Shown: piece by piece, positions 13,615-64,000 of the stretch | How the letters are laid out: the number at the start of each line of letters is the position of its first letter | Position numbering within the stretch: the stretch's first letter is position 1 | From: Dehalococcoidia bacterium | GTDB lineage: Bacteria > Chloroflexota > Dehalococcoidia > Lucifugimonadales > QGNO01 | Assembly (NCBI GenBank): GCA_965261445.1 | Contig: CBDHCW010000011.1 | Span: 967-64,966 of the forward strand | Length of the DNA stretch: 64,000 nt | Reading direction: 5' to 3' | Notes under the pieces: model-generated | What the model was told of the DNA's origin: nothing | Database searches by the model: none | The model's input: the letters and a program-made list of their open reading frames with translations, nothing else | Translations under genes and position numbers: made by a program

Positions 13615-13850
13615 TACTCTGCTTTGAACGGGAGTAGTAGGAGAGGCTCGGTCACAGAGAGCCGGCGGCAGCTGAAAAGCCGGTGACAAAGAGGTCCCGA
13701 ACTCGCCCGGGAGCAGTTGGCTTGGGCCGTAGAGCTGGAGCCAACGGAGTTGCACCGTTATAGCAATAGAGAGCCCTGATGTGATGTTGGGGAAGAAGGG
13801 TGGTACCGCGGGAACCGTTTCCCGTCCCTTAGTGGGACGGGATTTTTTGT
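13615..13850 (+). promoter_or_regulatory. T-box riboswitch with Leu (CUC) specifier
   Basis: Stem I with AGAGA bulge and GCUGAAA loop; GAA-CUC specifier at 13702-13704; T-box AAGGGTGGTACCGCG at 13796-13810. Confidence 0.93.
13821..13848 (+). terminator. T-box attenuator terminator
   Basis: CCCGTCCC/GGGACGGG stem followed by a T-run. Confidence 0.88.
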
Positions 13851-28655: not shown

Positions 28656-28816
28656 GGAAATGTGCTCGTTCAGTACATCCCCTACACATGCCATATTCTG
28701 CTATATTTTATATTAGGGGCTAGTAGAACAGAAGGGAGTAACCGATGCCTGCGACCATTACTGCTAAAGAGCAGAACTTGGACAAGATATTTAGTGATGT
28801 CAGGTGGACCCCATCA

Positions 28817-29752
28817 TCAGGACAGCGGTGAGGCTAAAATAAGAGAGTCTACCGCTGGGGTGTCTCGTAAACCTTCATCCGATGGTAAGGCTCGTGGATG
28901 TTCCAGTAAACACCTTTGTGGGCTCACTGCTTGGAACACCTGACCCGGTGACCGATAGCCCAGGGCTTGATGGGGCCGCTCTTGGTTGTAGAAGGCCAGA
29001 TAAGCCCCAATCCCCTTTCTGGCCTCAGTCCCATTTTGGTATGCCTTCAGGTACACCTCCTCGTACTTGATGCTGCGCCACAGCCGTTCCACGAAGACGT
29101 TGTCCATACACCGGCCCCTGCCGTCCATGCTCACTTGAACGCCTTGCGCCAGCAGCATGCTGGTGAAGGCCTCGCTGGTGAACTGGCTGCCCTGGTCGGT
29201 GTTGAAGATCTGTGGCCGACCCTTGCTCAGGGCCTCTTCCAGAGCCGCAACACAGAAGTCTACCTCCAGGGTGTTGGACAGCCGCCAAGCCAGCACGTAG
29301 CGGCTGTGCCAGTCCATGATGGCCACCAAGTAGAGGAAACCCCGAGCCATGGGTATGTAGGTGATGTCGGTGGCCCACACCTGGTTGACCCGGTTGATCT
29401 CCAGCCCCCTGAGCAAGTACGGATAGACCTTATGCCCTGGGTTTGGCTTGCTGGTGTTGGGACGCCGGTAGATGGCCTCCAGGCCTATCAGCTGCATCAG
29501 CCGGCGGACCCGCTTGCGGTTGACCTGGTGTCCGTGATTTCTGAGCCAGGCAGTCATCCTTCTGGAGCCGTAGAAAGGTGTCTTCAGGTACTGTTGATCT
29601 ATGCGGGCCATCAACTCCAAGTCCTCGGCGCCGGCCTCGGTTGGCAGGTAGTACAACGAGGAGCGGCTGATACCCAGCAAGGCGCACTGGCGCACCAGAG
29701 ACAGCTTCGGTTCTTCTCGGTCAATCATGGCCCGGCGTTGGGACCGGCTCAC
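28817..29752 (-). CDS. IS3 transposase OrfB (DDE)
   Basis: [31 protein letters not shown]. Confidence 0.95.
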
Positions 29753-30033
29753 AACCCGAAGCTCCGTGACAAAAAATCCCGTTCCACCTTGAGCTGCCCA
29801 ATCTGTTGGTAGAGCTGGGCAGTGAGGACCTCTTGGTCCTTCTCCTGGCGTCCAGCACCATTTTCAAAGAGGTGCGGCGCCCCCTGAATCAAGGCCTTCT
29901 TCCAGGCATGGATCTGGCTCGGGTGGACTTCAAACCGGCTGGCCAGCTCTGCAATGGTGTGCTCCCCCTGGAGCGCGGCCAAAGCCACTTTGGCCTTGAA
30001 GACTGGGCTGTGCTTCTTACGTGTTTGCTTCAT
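29749..30033 (-). CDS. IS3 transposase OrfA (HTH)
   Basis: FKAKVAL...[18 protein letters not shown]. Confidence 0.93.
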
Positions 30034-31799
30034 GTCCTGCTCCTTGTTTCCGTCCTATTTTAGGAGCGGGACTCTCTCTTAGCCACCTGTCCGAATTTTG
30101 GGGTCCACCTCAATGACTACGTTTTTAACGTCCCTTTGTACCAAAGGCCCTATGCTTGGACGACCGAACAGGTGGATGAACTTCTTGATGACCTCACTGA
30201 TGCGATGAAGAGGGACAGTGAGCCATACTTCCTGGGAAGTGTTGTGCTCATAAAAAGCGACGGCGATGCAAAAAGCGAGGTGGTTGATGGGCAGCAGAGG
30301 CTGACAACGCTTACCATGCTTCTCTGTGCTCTACGTGACCTCTCCGACGACCCCAAAATTGTACAAGAATTGGACAAGCGAGTTTGGGAAATTGGAGACT
30401 CACTCAGCGGTAATGAGGATAGGTCCCGTCTGAGTCTAAGAGAACGTGATAGGAACTTCTTTCAGCAACACGTTCAGAAGGCTAATAGTCTTGATCATTT
30501 CCTAAAGCGCGACCCCGTGAGTTTTTCGGACAGTCAGAAGCGAATATTCGAAAATGTAAAGTATCTTCGGCGGGAACTCCTGAAACACAATGAGCAACTA
30601 AGACACCAACTTGCCAAGTACATAATTAGGAACTGCTATATTGTCGTTGTTTCAGCATCTGACGTAGATTCAGCATACCGCATCTTCTCGGTGATGAATG
30701 ACCGAGGCATGCCTCTATCACCTACAGACATCTTGAAAGCAAACATAATTGGCAAGATGCCGCCTGACTCGCGAGACGAATACACTGAACGATGGGAGGT
30801 AATAGAGGAGGAACTCGGGCGGGATGATTTTAGAGATCTGTTTGCGCATATACGTACCATTTATCGGAAGGACAAGCTGAGGGGCTCTTTGCAAAAGGAG
30901 TTCCAAGACTACGTACTTGGTGGCCTGAGCCCCAAGCAGTTCATAGATGATGTGCTTGAACCCTACGGCGATGTATACGCAACTGTGTCTATGGCATCTT
31001 ACAAAAGCACCGAGGGCGCTGAGAAACTAAACTCGCTTTTGAAGCACCTTGGCAGGCTTGACAACTTTGATTGGATACCTCCGGCAATGTCCTGGTTCCA
31101 TCGTCGTGAAGGACAAACGGACAGTCTTTTCAAATTCACACTTGACTTGGAACGGCTGGCATACGGCTTGTTCATCCTAAGGGCGAATCTCAATGAACGC
31201 ATAAGTCGGTATAGAGATGTCCTTAACGCCATTGAGACAGAAGCAGACTTGTTTGCTGAGAACAGCCCCCTACAACTCCAATCTAAGGAAAAAGAGAAAA
31301 TGCTGGATGCGCTAAATAGTAACATCTATGAGTTACCCCGCGTTCCTATGCCATTGCTGCTGCGGCTAGATAGTCTACTTGCTGAGGAAGGAGTCATCGC
31401 TGAGCCTTCGATAATCAGTATCGAACACGTTCTTCCACAGAGTCCGACGGACACATGGATAGAATGGTTCCCGGATGCCGAGAAGAGAGAGGGATGGACG
31501 CACAGGCTAGCCAACCTCGTATTGCTGTCTCGTCGCAAGAATACGCGGGCGTCAAACTGGGACTTCAAGCGTAAGAAGGAGGAATATTTCCAGAAAGACG
31601 GTGTTACGACCTTCGCCCTGACCACGCAGGTGGTGAATGAATCGGAGTGGACGCCTGAGGTCTTGGAGTGCCGCCAAGAACGCTTAATCGATGCGCTAAA
31701 GAAAGAGTGGCGGCTGGGCTGAAGACAACGGCATCCTCAGCAATGGCTGCCGTCTACCATCTACCGCCTCTACTCCGCTCCGGGTGACCCCATACCGAC

Positions 31800-32002
31800 A
31801 CCACCCACTTCCCAACCAACCCTCATCACCGCTAACATTCCTCCATGATCACGTCAACCAAACCCATCACCCCTCCGGCAAGCATGCCCCAATCTGTTAC
31901 GAAAACCGCACACACTTCTGCGATATTCGGATTTGTTTCCCATATTTCCATAAAAGTTGGTTCGTTCTAGCTTTGGAAGTTGACATAACGTCTGAAACAA
32001 TT
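31800..32002 (+). repeat. Dispersed non-coding element, copy A
   Basis: Core at 31926-32002 closely matches the reverse complement of about 46110-46185. Confidence 0.75.
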
Positions 32003-32064
32003 CCTCGCCCCATGAGCGGCAAGTCGAAAAAGGGGTGTGAGGCCCAACCGTTTGGAGCTGCCGT

Positions 32065-32922
32065 CTACCCCTCCTCCGGCGCGTTGATGGCGTCTCCATG
32101 CAGCCCCAGCGGAGCGTCCAGAGTCGTGGGGAGCGCCTCTAGCTCCGGGTTGCTCAGCACCGCCTCGATGCACTCTTGGCTCCCGCCGACGTAGGTGTCG
32201 TACAGGTCGATGTCCGTTGCCACGCACCACGCTCGGTCTTCAGGCCACCAGATGTTCGGCGACTCCCTCCAGAAAGGCCCGTCTCCGGCAAGGAAAGCCA
32301 TTATGGAGTCGATGGGGCCGCTGAACAGCAGGTAATCGCGCCCCGGAGCTCTCACCCGGGAACCGGCCTTGTATAGGCGGGTGTCTATGTTGCCGTACCC
32401 TTCCCAGAGGCAGAAGCAGCCGCTGCCGGGGGTTGAGGTGAAGCCCTTGAGTACCCCGACCAGCGTACGGCACTCCCTTTCTGGGATCGACCCCATCTGT
32501 GGATGAGAACCCCACGGCGGGTCTTTGTACGTGTCGTGCAGGTCTTCGCTGAGACCGGCAATGCGCGTGAACTGCATGAGGGGATGGACGGTTCGTCCCG
32601 TCCACGAGGCCACCGTGGACCATGGCACCGGCTGCTCCTCATCGTCGGCAAGGTAGGCGGGATGAAACAGGCGGGCGTATGCCGGAAAGCCGCCGGGCAG
32701 CAGGGCGCGCACCGTCCCAAAGTCGGATAGGCTCTCCTCCACCCACCTGGCGCCCGATACGTCCTCTGAGAACGCCAGGCCGTCCGGCGCCAGCTTGGTC
32801 TGGCGGATGGGTATGCCTCCTCTAGTGGAGAGCATCGCCATACTGGACATACCGGCTCGGCCCCTTCCCAGTACCGAGCGAAGCCTTTGGATCCATGATT
32901 GTGGAATGTAATTCTTCCTCAT
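32065..32922 (-). CDS. Hypothetical protein
   Basis: GFPAYARLFHP and SPNIWWPEDRAWCVATDID look like a conserved family; start probably further downstream. Confidence 0.7.
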   Translation of the reverse strand: MRKNYIPQSWIQRLRSVLGRGRAGMSSMAMLSTRGGIPIRQTKLAPDGLAFSEDVSGARWVEESLSDFGTVRALLPGGFPAYARLFHPAYLADDEEQPVPWSTVASWTGRTVHPLMQFTRIAGLSEDLHDTYKDPPWGSHPQMGSIPERECRTLVGVLKGFTSTPGSGCFCLWEGYGNIDTRLYKAGSRVRAPGRDYLLFSGPIDSIMAFLAGDGPFWRESPNIWWPEDRAWCVATDIDLYDTYVGGSQECIEAVLSNPELEALPTTLDAPLGLHGDAINAPEEG

Positions 32923-44620: not shown

Positions 44621-46063
44621 ATGGCAGACATTCTCATCACCGGAGGCGCCGTCATCACCATGGACCCACAGCGCAGGGTCATAGAAGACGGCGCAGTAGC
44701 CATCGAAGCTGATCGCATTGTTGCCGTGGGCCCGCGGCAGGAGGTGGAGGCCGTACACAGCGCCGACCGCGTCATCCACGCCCAGCGCAAGGTAATCATG
44801 CCCGGTCTCATTGACGGCCACGGCCACGCCGGACATGCCCTGGTGAAGACCATGGGTCACGGGCCGGGCGCTATGTGGTCCAACACTGCCGACTATATCT
44901 ATGCCGAGGGCACGGACGAGGAGTTCTGGCATGCCGAGGCGCTTCTGGCCTCTCTTGACCGGTTGAAGAACGGCACCACCTGCGGAGTCACCTACTTTGG
45001 CGGAGGCACCATGGTGATGCGCGTGGACGAACCGGTCTACGCCGCCCGCCACTGCGAGGCCGTTCAGCAGCTGGGCATCCGCGAGTTCCTCGCCGTCGGC
45101 CCCAGCAACCCTCCTTATCCCAGGCAGTACGCACGGTGGGACAACGGCAATAGCCACACCTATATGGTCGACTTCGACCGGTACATGCGAACCACAGAGG
45201 AGATTATCCAGCGCTGGCATGGAGAAGCCGGTGGCCGCATCCATGTCTCGGTGATGTCTCCTACGCAGAACCCGGCGCGTTCTCCCTACAGTGAGACGCC
45301 GATTGAAGACCTCAAGGCCCAGGCACGCGCCCCCAAGGATCTCGCCGAAAAGTACGGGCTGATCCTGACGCAGGACGGCCACGATACGGGGACGGTCAAG
45401 TTTGCTCACGAGCAGCTTGGCATCCTTGGGCCGGACGTGCTCCTATCGCATTCCACGGGACTCACGGAGGAGGAGGTGCGCATCTGCGCCGAAACCGATA
45501 CCAGGATTGCCCACAATCCAAGCTCAGGCAACTCCTATCCGTCGCGCTGTCCCGTGCCACAGCTTCTTGACGCCGGGGTCACCGTGGCGCTGGGTTCCGA
45601 CGCAGCCGGACCGGATATGAACTACGACATGTTCCGCCACATGTACGTCTGCATGCGCCAGCACCGCGCCGAGTACCGTGACGGCGCTTACATGCCTCCG
45701 GGCAAGGTGCTGGAAATGGCGACCATAGACGCGGCTCATGCCCTGGGCTTGGACGACCAGATTGGGTCGTTGGAGGCGGGCAAGAAGGCCGACGTAATCC
45801 TGGTGGATATGAACAAGCCGCACCTGTACCCCCTGAACATGCCAGTGCATCGCGTGGTTGGCTTCGCCAATGGTCAGGACGTGGACACCGTCATAGTAGA
45901 CGGCCGGGTGCTGATGCAGGGCAGGGTGGTGACGGCAGTGGACGAGGAGGCCGTCCTGCAGCGAGCTCAAGCCGCCAGCGAGGCTATGCTGGAGCGTACC
46001 GGACTGCGCTCCCGCCTGGAAATCCAGGAAGGCTTCTGGGGTCACAGCAAGTATCCGTCTTGA
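44621..46063 (+). CDS. Amidohydrolase (MTA/SAH deaminase-like)
   Basis: PGLIDGHGH, ALGSD, GSLEAGKKAD. Confidence 0.9.
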   Translation: MADILITGGAVITMDPQRRVIEDGAVAIEADRIVAVGPRQEVEAVHSADRVIHAQRKVIMPGLIDGHGHAGHALVKTMGHGPGAMWSNTADYIYAEGTDEEFWHAEALLASLDRLKNGTTCGVTYFGGGTMVMRVDEPVYAARHCEAVQQLGIREFLAVGPSNPPYPRQYARWDNGNSHTYMVDFDRYMRTTEEIIQRWHGEAGGRIHVSVMSPTQNPARSPYSETPIEDLKAQARAPKDLAEKYGLILTQDGHDTGTVKFAHEQLGILGPDVLLSHSTGLTEEEVRICAETDTRIAHNPSSGNSYPSRCPVPQLLDAGVTVALGSDAAGPDMNYDMFRHMYVCMRQHRAEYRDGAYMPPGKVLEMATIDAAHALGLDDQIGSLEAGKKADVILVDMNKPHLYPLNMPVHRVVGFANGQDVDTVIVDGRVLMQGRVVTAVDEEAVLQRAQAASEAMLERTGLRSRLEIQEGFWGHSKYPS

Positions 46064-46107
46064 TGGTGGGTGTTGGATAGCGCTGAAGGGCTAGGTCTAT
46101 TTTGAAC

Positions 46108-46322
46108 CGAATTGTTTCAAACGTTATGTCTACTCCAAAGCTAAAAGCGGACCACTTTTTTGCAAATATGGGAAACAAATCCGAAAGGCGTCATTGGGGC
46201 GACGGTTTTTCGTCTGGAGAGAAGCGTGTGTGCGGCCGTCACTAGCGGGCTTTAATTTGCGGGTAGTGTTCATGGATACAGGATAAGGGCAAGGTGCGAG
46301 AGTGGGGAAGTGGTTGGTGGCG
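46108..46322 (-). repeat. Dispersed non-coding element, copy B
   Basis: Reverse complement matches the 31926-32002 core and upstream motifs. Confidence 0.75.
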
Positions 46323-46325
46323 GGG

Positions 46326-46401
46326 GCTGGGGCGTACCAATCTGCGCTCCCGCCTGGAAATCCAGGAAGGCTTTTGGGGGAATAGCAGGTATCCGGCTTG
46401 A
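46326..46401 (+). repeat. Diverged duplicate of the amidohydrolase 3' end (45988-46063)
   Basis: Encodes LGRTNLRSRLEIQEGFWGNSRYPA* versus LERTGLRSRLEIQEGFWGHSKYPS*. Confidence 0.9.
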
Positions 46402-46439
46402 TAAGTTGACATAGCACGACCGGCAATGTATATGGACAG

Positions 46440-46955: not shown

Positions 46956-46972
46956 TCAGGTGGACCCCATCA

Positions 46973-47908
46973 TCAGGACAGCGGTGAGGCTAAAATAAGA
47001 GAGTCTACCGCTGGGGTGTCTCGTAAACCTTCATCCGATGGTAAGGCTCGTGGATGTTCCAGTAAACACCTTTGTGGGCTCACTGCTTGGAACACCTGAC
47101 CCGGTGACCGATAGCCCAGGGCTTGATGGGGCCGCTCTTGGTTGTAGAAGGCCAGATAAGCCCCAATCCCCTTTCTGGCCTCAGTCCCATTTTGGTATGC
47201 CTTCAGGTACACCTCCTCGTACTTGATGCTGCGCCACAGCCGTTCCACGAAGACGTTGTCCATACACCGGCCCCTGCCGTCCATGCTCACTTGAACGCCT
47301 TGCGCCAGCAGCATGCTGGTGAAGGCCTCGCTGGTGAACTGGCTGCCCTGGTCGGTGTTGAAGATCTGTGGCCGACCCTTGCTCAGGGCCTCTTCCAGAG
47401 CCGCAACACAGAAGTCTACCTCCAGGGTGTTGGACAGCCGCCAAGCCAGCACGTAGCGGCTGTGCCAGTCCATGATGGCCACCAAGTAGAGGAAACCCCG
47501 AGCCATGGGTATGTAGGTGATGTCGGTGGCCCACACCTGGTTGACCCGGTTGATCTCCAGCCCCCTGAGCAAGTACGGATAGACCTTATGCCCTGGGTTT
47601 GGCTTGCTGGTGTTGGGACGCCGGTAGATGGCCTCCAGGCCTATCAGCTGCATCAGCCGGCGGACCCGCTTGCGGTTGACCTGGTGTCCGTGATTTCTGA
47701 GCCAGGCAGTCATCCTTCTGGAGCCGTAGAAAGGTGTCTTCAGGTACTGTTGATCTATGCGGGCCATCAACTCCAAGTCCTCGGCGCCGGCCTCGGTTGG
47801 CAGGTAGTACAACGAGGAGCGGCTGATACCCAGCAAGGCGCACTGGCGCACCAGAGACAGCTTCGGTTCTTCTCGGTCAATCATGGCCCGGCGTTGGGAC
47901 CGGCTCAC
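46973..47908 (-). CDS. IS3 transposase OrfB
   Basis: Identical to copy 1. Confidence 0.95.
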
Positions 47909-48189
47909 AACCCGAAGCTCCGTGACAAAAAATCCCGTTCCACCTTGAGCTGCCCAATCTGTTGGTAGAGCTGGGCAGTGAGGACCTCTTGGTCCTTCTC
48001 CTGGCGTCCAGCACCATTTTCAAAGAGGTGCGGCGCCCCCTGAATCAAGGCCTTCTTCCAGGCATGGATCTGGCTCGGGTGGACTTCAAACCGGCTGGCC
48101 AGCTCTGCAATGGTGTGCTCCCCCTGGAGCGCGGCCAAAGCCACTTTGGCCTTGAAGACTGGGCTGTGCTTCTTACGTGTTTGCTTCAT
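47905..48189 (-). CDS. IS3 transposase OrfA
   Basis: Identical to copy 1. Confidence 0.93.
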
Positions 48190-48268
48190 GTCCTGCTCCT
48201 TGTTTCCGTCCTATTTTAGGAGCGGGACTCTCTCTTAGCCACCTGTCCGAATTTTGGGGTCCACCTCA

Positions 48269-48568
48269 CTGTTCGCGGGGATGTCAGCATTCTCGTGGAA
48301 CGAGGCCCAGAGTCATGGCGAATGGCTAACAACCCGGGCAGGACAGTTTAGACTCATACCTCAATGTTCAAACGTGTCCGTCTCAAATTCAGCCTACCCA
48401 AAGCATGAGGTGCTTGAACACTTGGCTTCTCGCCGACTACCTTATGTTTCTCTCAAGGCTGCTAATGGAGAGGGGCTCAGGACATATGGGCCGGATCATC
48501 CCATCAACTTTTGGAAATACACTCCTCAGGGAGAATTTGATAAAGCACCTCTCAGGAACGTATCATGA
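48269..48568 (+). pseudogene. Possible 3' remnant of an unknown gene cut by IS3
   Basis: Open frame running out of the IS end; lower GC; no recognisable motif. Confidence 0.35.
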
Positions 48569-62558: not shown

Positions 62559-62673
62559 CGTCATTGCGAGTAAGCGAAGCAATCCGGTGGGGTGCAATCC
62601 TCATTCCTACCCTCACACATTGGCCAGCCCCGCCACCAGGTTGCCACGCCACGATTCTATCGTGGCTCGCAAC
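62559..62673. repeat. CGTCATTGCGAG-type repeat pair (inverted arms)
   Basis: Arms at 62559-62584 and 62633-62673; the second nearly matches 63721-63761. Confidence 0.85.
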
Positions 62674-62679
62674 GGGGCA

Positions 62680-63144
62680 TCACCGCCCCTGTTCTCGCTG
62701 GGTCAGGGCGTAGGCTATCTTCTCCCGTGACGACATGCCGCTGAACTCCTGGTTCCCTCTTACCGGCGCACCGGAAGGGACGCGCTCCCCGACAATCTGA
62801 GCCTCGATTCGCCCGCGTACCTTCTCCACCATCTGCCGCGCACCGGCCAGGGAGGTTTCGACCTCTTCCGGCGATTCTCCCCCGACCAGCTCCTCCGGGA
62901 CATCGGGGGCGGCAGCGAGCAACGCTTCTCGGTAACGGGCGGTGGCCGAGGCAAGCCGGCTCTGCAGAGCCTCGATCTCTAGGTCGCGCTGTTCCAGGGC
63001 CGTGCGCAGCTCGGCAAGCTCTGCCTGCGCTTCGTCCGATGCCGTCTCCGCTGCTGGGGCTTCACCATCCTGGCCGGCAGACTCTACCATCGTCTCTTCA
63101 GAGGTTACTTCCTCCATGATCGCCTCCTCTTCTGCGTTATGCAC
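62680..63144 (-). CDS. Putative capsid scaffold-like protein
   Basis: Acidic N-terminus, coiled coil, VPSGAP.R...MSSREKIAYAL tail; lies downstream of a portal-like gene. Confidence 0.55.
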   Translation of the reverse strand: MHNAEEEAIMEEVTSEETMVESAGQDGEAPAAETASDEAQAELAELRTALEQRDLEIEALQSRLASATARYREALLAAAPDVPEELVGGESPEEVETSLAGARQMVEKVRGRIEAQIVGERVPSGAPVRGNQEFSGMSSREKIAYALTQREQGR

Positions 63145-63240
63145 TCAGGGTAAGCCGCAGCCGGCGGCTTGGGGAAGGGGGAGATGGCAGAGTGTCATTG
63201 GAGAGCAGGCGATGATAATCCCACATGGCGGTCATGGCGA

Positions 63241-63289
63241 GCGTCCATCGCAGTGCGGCGGCTATGGATCCCTGAGCCGACTAGCAACT
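63241..63289 (-). repeat. 49-bp diverged copy of the portal-like gene segment 63893-63941
   Basis: 45/49 identical; all four differences are at third codon positions. Confidence 0.9.
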
Positions 63290-63301
63290 TGGGCTTCACC
63301 A

Positions 63302-63391
63302 CCACCAGATTGCCACGCCCCGATTATCGGGGCTCGCAATGACGAGAAGCGGTTCCGGTGTCGTCATTGCGAGCGCCCAAGCGAAGCAATC
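63302..63391. repeat. Composite palindromic unit downstream of GIY-YIG
   Basis: GATTGCCACG...CTCGCAATGACG plus CGTCATTGCGAG...GCGAAGCAATC. Confidence 0.88.
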
Positions 63392-63412
63392 TGGTGGGGT
63401 GGGGCTGGCAGT

Positions 63413-63700
63413 CTACAGCTCGGTGCTCAGGTCTCGCCAAGCCGGATTCATTTTGTTGACCAACTCAATCTTTCGCCGGCGTGAGTATGCTTTAATTTGC
63501 TTCTCGTGGGCAATGGCGGCCTCCGCTGTTGCCGCTATTTCGTAATAAACAAGGTCGGTAACGTTGTACTTTGCGGCAAAACCGGACGTGAACTTCTCCT
63601 TGTGCTCGTAGACGCGGCGTGAAAGATTATTAGTCATCCCTGTATAGAGCACTGTTTTCCTGGGGTTGGTCATTATGTATATAAAGAAGGTCTTGTCCAT
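63413..63700 (-). CDS. Small stand-alone GIY-YIG nuclease (95 aa)
   Basis: FIYIMTN...LYTGMTNNLSRRVYEH...LVYYE...AIAHEKQIK...NPAWRDL. Confidence 0.9.
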   Translation of the reverse strand: MDKTFFIYIMTNPRKTVLYTGMTNNLSRRVYEHKEKFTSGFAAKYNVTDLVYYEIAATAEAAIAHEKQIKAYSRRRKIELVNKMNPAWRDLSTEL

Positions 63701-63720
63701 GCTAATCCATGTTGGCCCCG

Positions 63721-63813
63721 CCACCAGGTTGCCACGCCACGATTCTATCGTGACTCGCAACGACGAGGAGCGGGTTCCGTCACCGTCATTGCGAGCGTCA
63801 AAGCGAAGCAATC
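63721..63813. repeat. Composite palindromic unit upstream of GIY-YIG
   Basis: Direct repeat of 63302-63391. Confidence 0.88.
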
Positions 63814-63837
63814 CCCCCGGGGGGGGGGGGGCAATTC

Positions 63838-64000
63838 TCACCCCTCCTCTCGCACCTTGGCTAGCTCCGCCTCCGGGTCCGGCACGCCGAGGGCTTCCAT
63901 TGCGGTGCGGCGGCTGTGGATCCCTGAGCCGACTAGCAACTGCTCGTCGCGGACAAGGCGGCCCCTGTTCTGGGGCAGCACGGGTCCCCAGATTATCTCC
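63838..64000 (-). CDS. 3' end of a probable phage portal-like protein (partial; absent from the ORF track)
   Basis: Manual translation EIIWGPVLPQNRGRLVRDEQLLVGSGIHSRRTAMEALGVPDPEAELAKVREEG* resembles SPP1-type portal C-termini. Confidence 0.6.
   Translation of the reverse strand, partial: EIIWGPVLPQNRGRLVRDEQLLVGSGIHSRRTAMEALGVPDPEAELAKVREEG

Follow-up and report, generated by a model that had tools for sequence, protein, structure and literature searches.

Dispersed late-promoter cassettes with a TerS-like gene as candidate packaging-start sites of a host capsid system in Dehalococcoidia

The DNA considered here comes from a Dehalococcoidia bacterium (genome G000, 1.89 Mb), and the window, i.e., the whole stretch analysed, comprises 64,000 nucleotides of one of its contigs. 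A short repeated element, termed here the cassette, occurs twice in the window, as copy A and copy B. It is proposed, with a probability of about 0.5, that the cassette combines a dispersed packaging-start (pac-like) site with a specificity adaptor, a shortened terminase small subunit (TerS), and parasitises a capsid system of the host. The observations that carry this proposal are a promoter motif shared with capsid genes, the TerS ancestry of the cassette protein, complementary truncations of this protein and of the host TerS, a helically phased DNA motif, a polar turnover of the neighbouring genes, and imprecise ends. From these we infer binding, packaging, and the spread of the cassettes.

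Repeat family and gene-bearing form

As the initial annotation had stated, a core sequence (31926-32003) recurs inverted at 46109-46185 (88.6% identity over 79 nt, E 2e-19), both copies carry upstream the arrangement CCACTTCCC-N18-TAnnnT-N6-ATG and the ACGAAAA motifs, and copy A lies between 13-bp direct repeats (31746-31758 and 32057-32069). Its two-copy view of the repeat, however, proved too narrow, since a search of the genome and its relatives, as it had suggested, gave 27 copies in G000 by profile and matches in 9/9 congeners (6 to at least 14 scored matches each). In G004, a congener 94% identical to G000 of which the first 2.0 Mb were searched, there are 25 full and three partial cores; outside the genus, 51 genomes yielded three short weak matches only. 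Altogether, 125 copies were collected from 10 genomes, 111 of them fitting a pattern that demands the shape of the -10 box, with promoter and ATG. The layout consists of a 5' block and a variable part of 50-130 bases, after which a pair of short repeats, spaced by about 21 bp, leads to the core. Reading frames from the ATG into the core are distributed as 32/34/26 over the 92 non-intact copies and therefore no peptide is conserved, in agreement with the earlier view that conservation is not at the protein level.

Neither the comparison of the element DNA with 50,697 phage records nor a search of viral contigs with the exact core pattern gave a match, and no description of these cassettes was found in a literature search whose reach excluded most subscription papers and all supplements. 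A polar replication-linked motif was rejected because orientation on the G004 chromosome is unbiased (14 leading vs 11 lagging, p 0.69), and integron-like arrays because ordinary genes separate the clustered copies of the genome G003. At several loci (L033, L036, L044, and others), a short unit resembling repetitive extragenic palindromic (REP) sequences, in one to several tandem copies, has been inserted repeatedly at the same point, directly before the left motif of the core.

A co-occurring protein gene, the search for which had also been suggested, exists in the intact form of the cassette, composed of the promoter, a 99-amino-acid TerS-like gene, and the same 3' core; in one G000 copy, this open reading frame (ORF) occupies the place of the variable part. 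Such genes, at 55-100% identity, number 1 to 4 per genome in 9/10 genus genomes, and in G007 only weak or broken matches are found. The pairwise ratio of nonsynonymous to synonymous substitutions among 19 intact genes (dN/dS ~0.47) argues for the proposed function. The gene-less copies may be deletion derivatives, a view favoured by the detectable gene remnant in 12/92 non-intact copies, and one further G000 copy is, by eye, an obvious deletion of the gene-bearing form. The existence of this form, together with many pairs of loci filled in G000 and empty in G004 or the reverse, upholds the earlier idea of a non-autonomous mobile unit.

The cassette protein matches PHROG families of terminase small subunits (E 1e-6) and has 604 relatives at E 0.001, with no family in Pfam and a best E value of 0.04 in a sequence search of the PDB. 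Gene neighbourhoods were scanned for the best 80 of 330 genome loci and the 24 best of 79 viral loci, the N-terminal motif being required. In this set, homologues lie directly before the gene of the terminase large subunit (terL) or the portal gene at 35/80 genome loci and at 24/24 viral loci, and they stand alone at 45/80 genome loci. The tree places 45 stand-alone rows in a single clade (support 88), three other stand-alone rows being full-length proteins of the linked type. A C-terminal helix motif is present in 57/63 linked-type proteins vs 0/45 stand-alone ones. The complementary loss is seen in the genus's own terL-linked TerS, which belongs to the head module described below and lacks the N-terminal GAPxGNQNARxHG arm in 11/11 copies, the arm being kept by the cassette protein.

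In the accessible text of PMC6854486, TerS is described as binding DNA through its N terminus, oligomerising through its middle part, and contacting TerL through its C terminus, and the TerS of a gene transfer agent (GTA) as devoid of the DNA-binding part. By analogy, the missing C-terminal helix may be the TerL-interaction segment of this TerS-like family, and the N-terminal arm of the cassette protein probably binds DNA. An AlphaFold model of the protein shows a helical hairpin (helices 52-67 and 73-98) with a predicted local distance difference test (pLDDT) score >90. Fold searches returned generic helical hairpins (best Z 7.0, none at E 0.001), which excludes no family, and the predicted complex of four copies (score 0.20) is evidence neither way.

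Capsid-type promoter and host head module

The 5' block of the cassette reads (C/T)G(A/C)CA-N8-TTCCCC-N18-TAnnnT-N6-ATG. In G004 (2.0 Mb), the strict pattern occurs 16 times, in 14 cassettes, before the major-capsid operon, and before the gene in scaffold position; its 18 occurrences in G000, where 0.2 would be expected, correspond to 14 cassettes, two scaffold genes, the capsid gene, and one duplicated 5' half of a cassette. Promoter matches with a core number 51, and those without it six. The capsid promoter is conserved across the genus, and in most genomes it overlaps a GAAC-N4-GTTC box, which we take to be of the SOS type. In the window, a cassette-type promoter motif (63147..63189) precedes the scaffold-position gene (62680..63117), a homologue of the gene intervening between portal and capsid in viral contigs and without a PHROG name; the 3' end of the portal gene lies at 63838..64000, all three being on the reverse strand.

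The module is arranged as terS-terL-activator-portal-scaffold, with the capsid and adaptor genes located elsewhere, and the late-activator-like gene between terL and portal matches phrog_836 (E 1.6e-5). The capsid gene is single copy in 10/10 genus genomes, terL is intact in 9/10, and the TerL family was found in 102/151 genomes of the class. These head and packaging genes are conserved and vertically kept, as in a GTA, and no phage replication genes lie beside them; the module (window 62680-64000; G004 L134-L135, L137) is a candidate for an undescribed GTA-like system.

Other features were observed around the module. Its adaptor is of the SU10 type and located with the capsid gene, away from the other module genes; directly after the capsid-adaptor genes, G004 carries an aminoglycoside nucleotidyltransferase-like Pfam domain (PF10706; L137:13847-14380). 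A small ORF of phrog_35456 (window 63413-63841) between the portal and scaffold genes is presumably endonuclease-like, being of GIY-YIG appearance, and REP-like repeats extend across 62627-63826.

The core as a DNA motif

The core is better read as DNA than as a structured RNA. Within the 450 bp that follow the gene, GAnTYGTTTY or its complement is found for 35/45 stand-alone vs 0/59 terL-linked genes, with a background of 0.014 per 450 bp, the pattern having been fixed after some loci had been inspected. A motif found de novo, AAACGAAT, is present at 15/32 loci outside the genus vs 0.6% of background windows. In these loci, the sites are often direct repeats in helical phase, and the spacings of same-direction motifs cluster at multiples of 10.5 bp (p ~0.004, related loci not being independent). 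Within the genus, the motif forms an inverted pair, its members 62-66 bp apart in 78 cores and 53 bp, one helical turn shorter, in six. The cassette protein, whose gene is associated with this phased motif, may be what binds the packaging site.

For one strand, folding of 90 distinct cores with RNAalifold yielded no more than a 7-bp terminal stem (-1.55 kcal/mol), and for the opposite strand no structure, with secondary-structure covariation restricted to one double-change pair. The only Rfam match in the window was a T-box leader (13615-13832, RF00230), and nothing was obtained over the element at E 1. In two RNA runs of one study, used as contigs, a contig covers the stretch between 31788 and the downstream gene, the element included, and gives no indication of strand, ends, or transcription; transcription from the cassette promoter is likely. 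DNA runs, also as contigs, contained no clean excision joint of the element.

Insertion and turnover of neighbouring genes

Counted by hand, 14 loci are filled in either G000 or G004 and empty in the respective other genome. The two sequences become homologous again 8-220 bp beyond the core, at nine of these loci within 60 bp. The eight junction pairs read fully show either replacement of up to ~240 bp or an overlap of 3-5 bp, without duplication or common ends. Miniature inverted-repeat transposable elements (MITEs) or other derivatives of insertion sequences (IS) were rejected on these eight pairs, which have neither fixed ends nor a fixed-length target duplication. Repeats of the downstream flank, of 25-80 bp, stand just upstream of the cassette at two loci among 108 copies, copy B included, and the portal locus also shows such a duplication. 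In addition, 14 copies bear a tail like that of the copy before the portal gene, several with 20-60 bp of the portal gene itself.

The turnover is polar. Upstream homology ends at most 25 bp from the box in 7/14 pairs shared by G000 and G004 vs 10/176 control genes (Fisher p 3e-5), 32 further control genes that broke nearer the start codon being set aside. The upstream 1.5 kb is 50% shared between the two genomes and has a lower G+C content, whereas the downstream 1.5 kb is 96% shared. Restriction-modification genes are found among the genes upstream of cassettes. Leaving out duplicates and ORFs crossing the borders of the 20-kb stretches, PADLOC matches amount to 8/66 upstream vs 1/70 downstream proteins (p 0.015), which becomes a weak statistic when counted by locus (6 vs 1 of 25 loci, p 0.10). 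In G003, a gene-bearing cassette with a frameshift has, immediately on its upstream side, a gene pair (L339:3479-5169) that resembles DarT-DarG in its N-terminal sequences.

As regards direction, the junctions just past the core favour leftward packaging into the upstream genes (the cargo), and the breaks and flank duplications at the box favour rightward packaging; trimming by deletion could mimic either.

The two copies of the window

Copy A, on the forward strand, begins with the (C/T)G(A/C)CA box (31796..31800), a likely activator site of a capsid-type late promoter, followed by a -35-like TTCCCA, an 18-bp spacer, and the -10 TAACAT (31809..31838). A leaderless-type ATG and variable segment (31845..31898), conserved at orthologous loci, stand in place of the TerS-like gene, and direct repeats of the ACGAAAA / ACGA(A/T)AT type, ~21 bp apart (31899..31928), lead to the core (31929..32003), in which the inverted pair GGATTTGTTTC (31929-31939) and GAAACAATTC (31994-32003) encloses A/T tracts. 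From its sequence, this core is a candidate TerS-binding, pac-like site. Beside the right motif, on the reverse strand, a TTATGTCAA arm with its 6-bp spacer (31980..31994) resembles the XerD arm of the host dif candidate.

The left 13-bp repeat is a possible, though marginal, remnant of a duplicated piece of the downstream flank, and the right one lies in host flank DNA, both read on the forward strand; alone, the repeat is marginal (score 13, reached by 1.6% of mismatched pairs), and the G004 orthologue of copy A keeps a 10-bp version. A GmrSD restriction gene (30136..31722, forward strand) is the variable upstream cargo of copy A, and G004 has different DNA in this position, with a restriction-endonuclease domain of the phospholipase D (PLD) type.

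Copy B (46109..46322, reverse strand) has its box at 46322, the -10 at 46285, the left motif at 46182, the arm at 46132, and the right motif at 46118. A 77-bp duplicate of its downstream flank (45988-46064) is located at 46326..46402 on the reverse strand, ending 3 bp before the box. Two identical IS3-family copies (~28800-30100 and 46956-48270) lie one in the upstream cargo of each window cassette.

Proposed mechanism and its difficulties

It is proposed that, upon SOS induction, the late activator of the module would activate the capsid genes and the cassettes simultaneously. Via their shared helical hairpin, the cassette protein and the module TerS would form mixed assemblies, the former lending the latter specificity for the phased motif. 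Cleavage by TerL in the vicinity of the cassette would follow, and the cassette would be packaged along with the DNA next to it. In the recipient, homologous recombination would take place at one end and imprecise joining at the other, and this one-sided recombination may both spread the cassette and swap the cargo beside it. Gene-less copies like copy A would act in cis alone, as sites that are served in trans. Transcription-coupled packaging has a precedent in phage T7, and a literature search on this subject found nothing.

More tentatively, it is suggested that, throughout the class, minimal selfish cassettes confer site specificity on a GTA-like capsid system of Dehalococcoidia that would otherwise package DNA at random, by means of a split TerS, whose host half would dock the motor and whose cassette half would read the DNA. 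Packaging would thus start at dozens of sites made of a late promoter and phased repeats, hence hot spots for the exchange of anti-phage genes.

Several points weigh against the packaging proposal. The cassette protein lacks the segment that commonly docks TerL, and the model therefore needs a mixed oligomer, while the birth of cassettes at 27 unrelated loci requires further illegitimate joints. No gene remnant was detectable in the 23 G000 copies tested, copy A included, which is thus tied to the gene by its shared ends. The module's own, terL-linked terS genes lack the GAnTYGTTTY motif beside them (0/59), and the site therefore does not reproduce any known pac site. Only 5/29 stand-alone genes outside the genus have the promoter within 260 bp. 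Breaks cluster at the 5' edge and also just past the core, so one edge is not a cut site, and trimming by deletion to a selected edge would give a similar picture. The TTATGTCAA arm and its 6-bp spacer, present in 83/86 cores, are left unexplained. As for the module, both terS-terL-portal copies of G000 (C4:5492-6890, C10:255796-257227) have a frameshifted terL; each of the nine congeners has one intact copy, and the G000 pair reflects decay or an assembly error. No tail genes were seen beside the head genes, no genome-wide tail search having been made, and the co-occurrence with terL in the class sample (7/7 clear cases vs the base of 102/151) is not significant.

Alternative explanations

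The cassette protein might instead be a packaging inhibitor or decoy that poisons TerS rings, whether those of the module or those of related phages entering the cell, or keeps DNA close to its sites from being packaged. The loss of the C-helix in 45/45 stand-alone proteins, the close TerS homologues in viral contigs, and the use of packaging inhibitors by satellites, as reported in the accessible part of 10.1101/2024.04.22.590561, agree with such a role, but it accounts neither for the excess of gene-less copies that keep promoter and core (~25 vs 1-4 intact) nor for the one-sided turnover of cargo, and we consider it unlikely. A similarly low likelihood is given to a non-autonomous element without a packaging role, moved by a recombinase acting in trans, for instance XerD at the arm together with the small protein. 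The conserved arm and spacer speak for it: the arm equals TTATGTAAAG in five cores, identical to a dif candidate that lies near the GC-skew turning point once in each of four genus genomes (G000:C33:14445-14464; G004:C1:235575-235594; L362; L363), and a second, inverted arm exists in a long-tail subfamily. However, the ends vary and no crossover is seen at the spacer, whose two sides travel with the cassette; the junctions are located 8-220 bp beyond the core. Most stand-alone loci outside the genus lack the arm, and the capsid-type promoter is left unexplained. A Xer/dif-type site, like those of integrative mobile elements exploiting Xer (IMEX) or of plasmids (pdif), was itself rejected, with no XerC-like arm present and the junctions not in the 6-bp centre.

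A shade less probable is that the copies serve mainly as portable late promoters for neighbouring genes or short regulatory transcripts, the core being a feedback operator or road-block for the small protein. The co-directional downstream gene of 92/125 copies and the retention of promoter and ATG in 111/125 are in line with this, although the downstream genes are ordinary housekeeping ones, apparently (by eye) with promoters of their own, the copies are gained and lost between species at 94% identity, and the upstream turnover is not accounted for. The structured small RNA with a variable guide and a constant scaffold, offered by the initial annotation, now seems very improbable. Its promoter-like 5' end, the terminal inverted repeat, in which 8/90 cores have both partners of one pair altered, and a mean folding z of about -1.3 to -1.5 would suit it; yet the core has no Rfam match and no internal structure beyond the 7-bp terminal stem, and the sites outside the genus are often direct, phased repeats. 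Moreover, it is chiefly divergent lineages whose cores carry the double change, among them the three intact copies in which the protein has diverged most; a single DNA motif occurring twice would give this pattern. Nor were targets found, the variable parts matching nothing in G000 and G004 except REP-type inserts and one partial cassette duplicate.

Significance and relation to known systems

If the packaging proposal is true, cassettes mark sites of DNA loading and bias which neighbouring genes, often anti-phage ones, pass between cells, offering a path by which chromosomal defence islets could turn over rapidly. For GTA-like packaging, they provide candidates for exact start sites and for a specificity factor, as well as a promoter in common; therefore, the steering or parasitism of a domesticated capsid system becomes testable by sequencing virion DNA. 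The cassettes lead, moreover, to a capsid module that seems not to have been described and that about two thirds of the sampled Dehalococcoidia carry.

The cassette does not belong to the phage-inducible chromosomal islands (PICIs), MITEs, Xer sites, or structured RNAs. MITEs, REPINs (REP doublets forming hairpins), and integron attC sites are likewise short, multicopy, intergenic, non-autonomous, and found beside variable genes; unlike them, the cassette has no terminal inverted repeats at its ends, no fixed target duplication, and no cassette arrays, and its associated gene is TerS-like.

In PICIs and the related Staphylococcus aureus pathogenicity islands (SaPIs), as is proposed for the cassette, the packaging specificity comes from a small element, TerL and the capsid being borrowed in trans. 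The E. coli PICI protein that redirects a phage TerS is named Rpp. According to the accessible part of 10.1101/2024.04.22.590561, these satellites possess their own TerS and pac site, or redirect the phage TerS in the E. coli case. In contrast, the cassette measures ~450 bp and has no integrase, replication genes, or att ends, its intact unit being one 99-amino-acid gene; it is present in 25-27 chromosomal copies, most of them gene-less, and its helper is an apparently vertically inherited host module.

This module resembles GTAs, with the Rhodobacter capsulatus GTA (RcGTA) and its TerS gp1 as the reference, in its conserved, split, single-copy head genes (PMC6854486 and PMC11841831, both accessible in part). 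Its TerS, like gp1, starts at the helical domain, without the N-terminal arm of phage relatives (PMC6854486). The available text of PMC11841831 portrays packaging by GTAs as non-specific and mentions coverage peaks that are unexplained, and that of the 2019 paper (PMC6854486) states that no GTA binding sites were known. Unlike in GTAs, here a separate gene keeps the arm and accompanies dispersed sites of the putative system. Finally, in the lateral transduction of defence islands, as far as the accessible part of PMC12829572 describes it, packaging from a fixed chromosomal site would likewise move adjacent defence genes that turn over between relatives; there, the process starts from an integrated prophage or PICI, whereas here it would start from many minimal cassettes.
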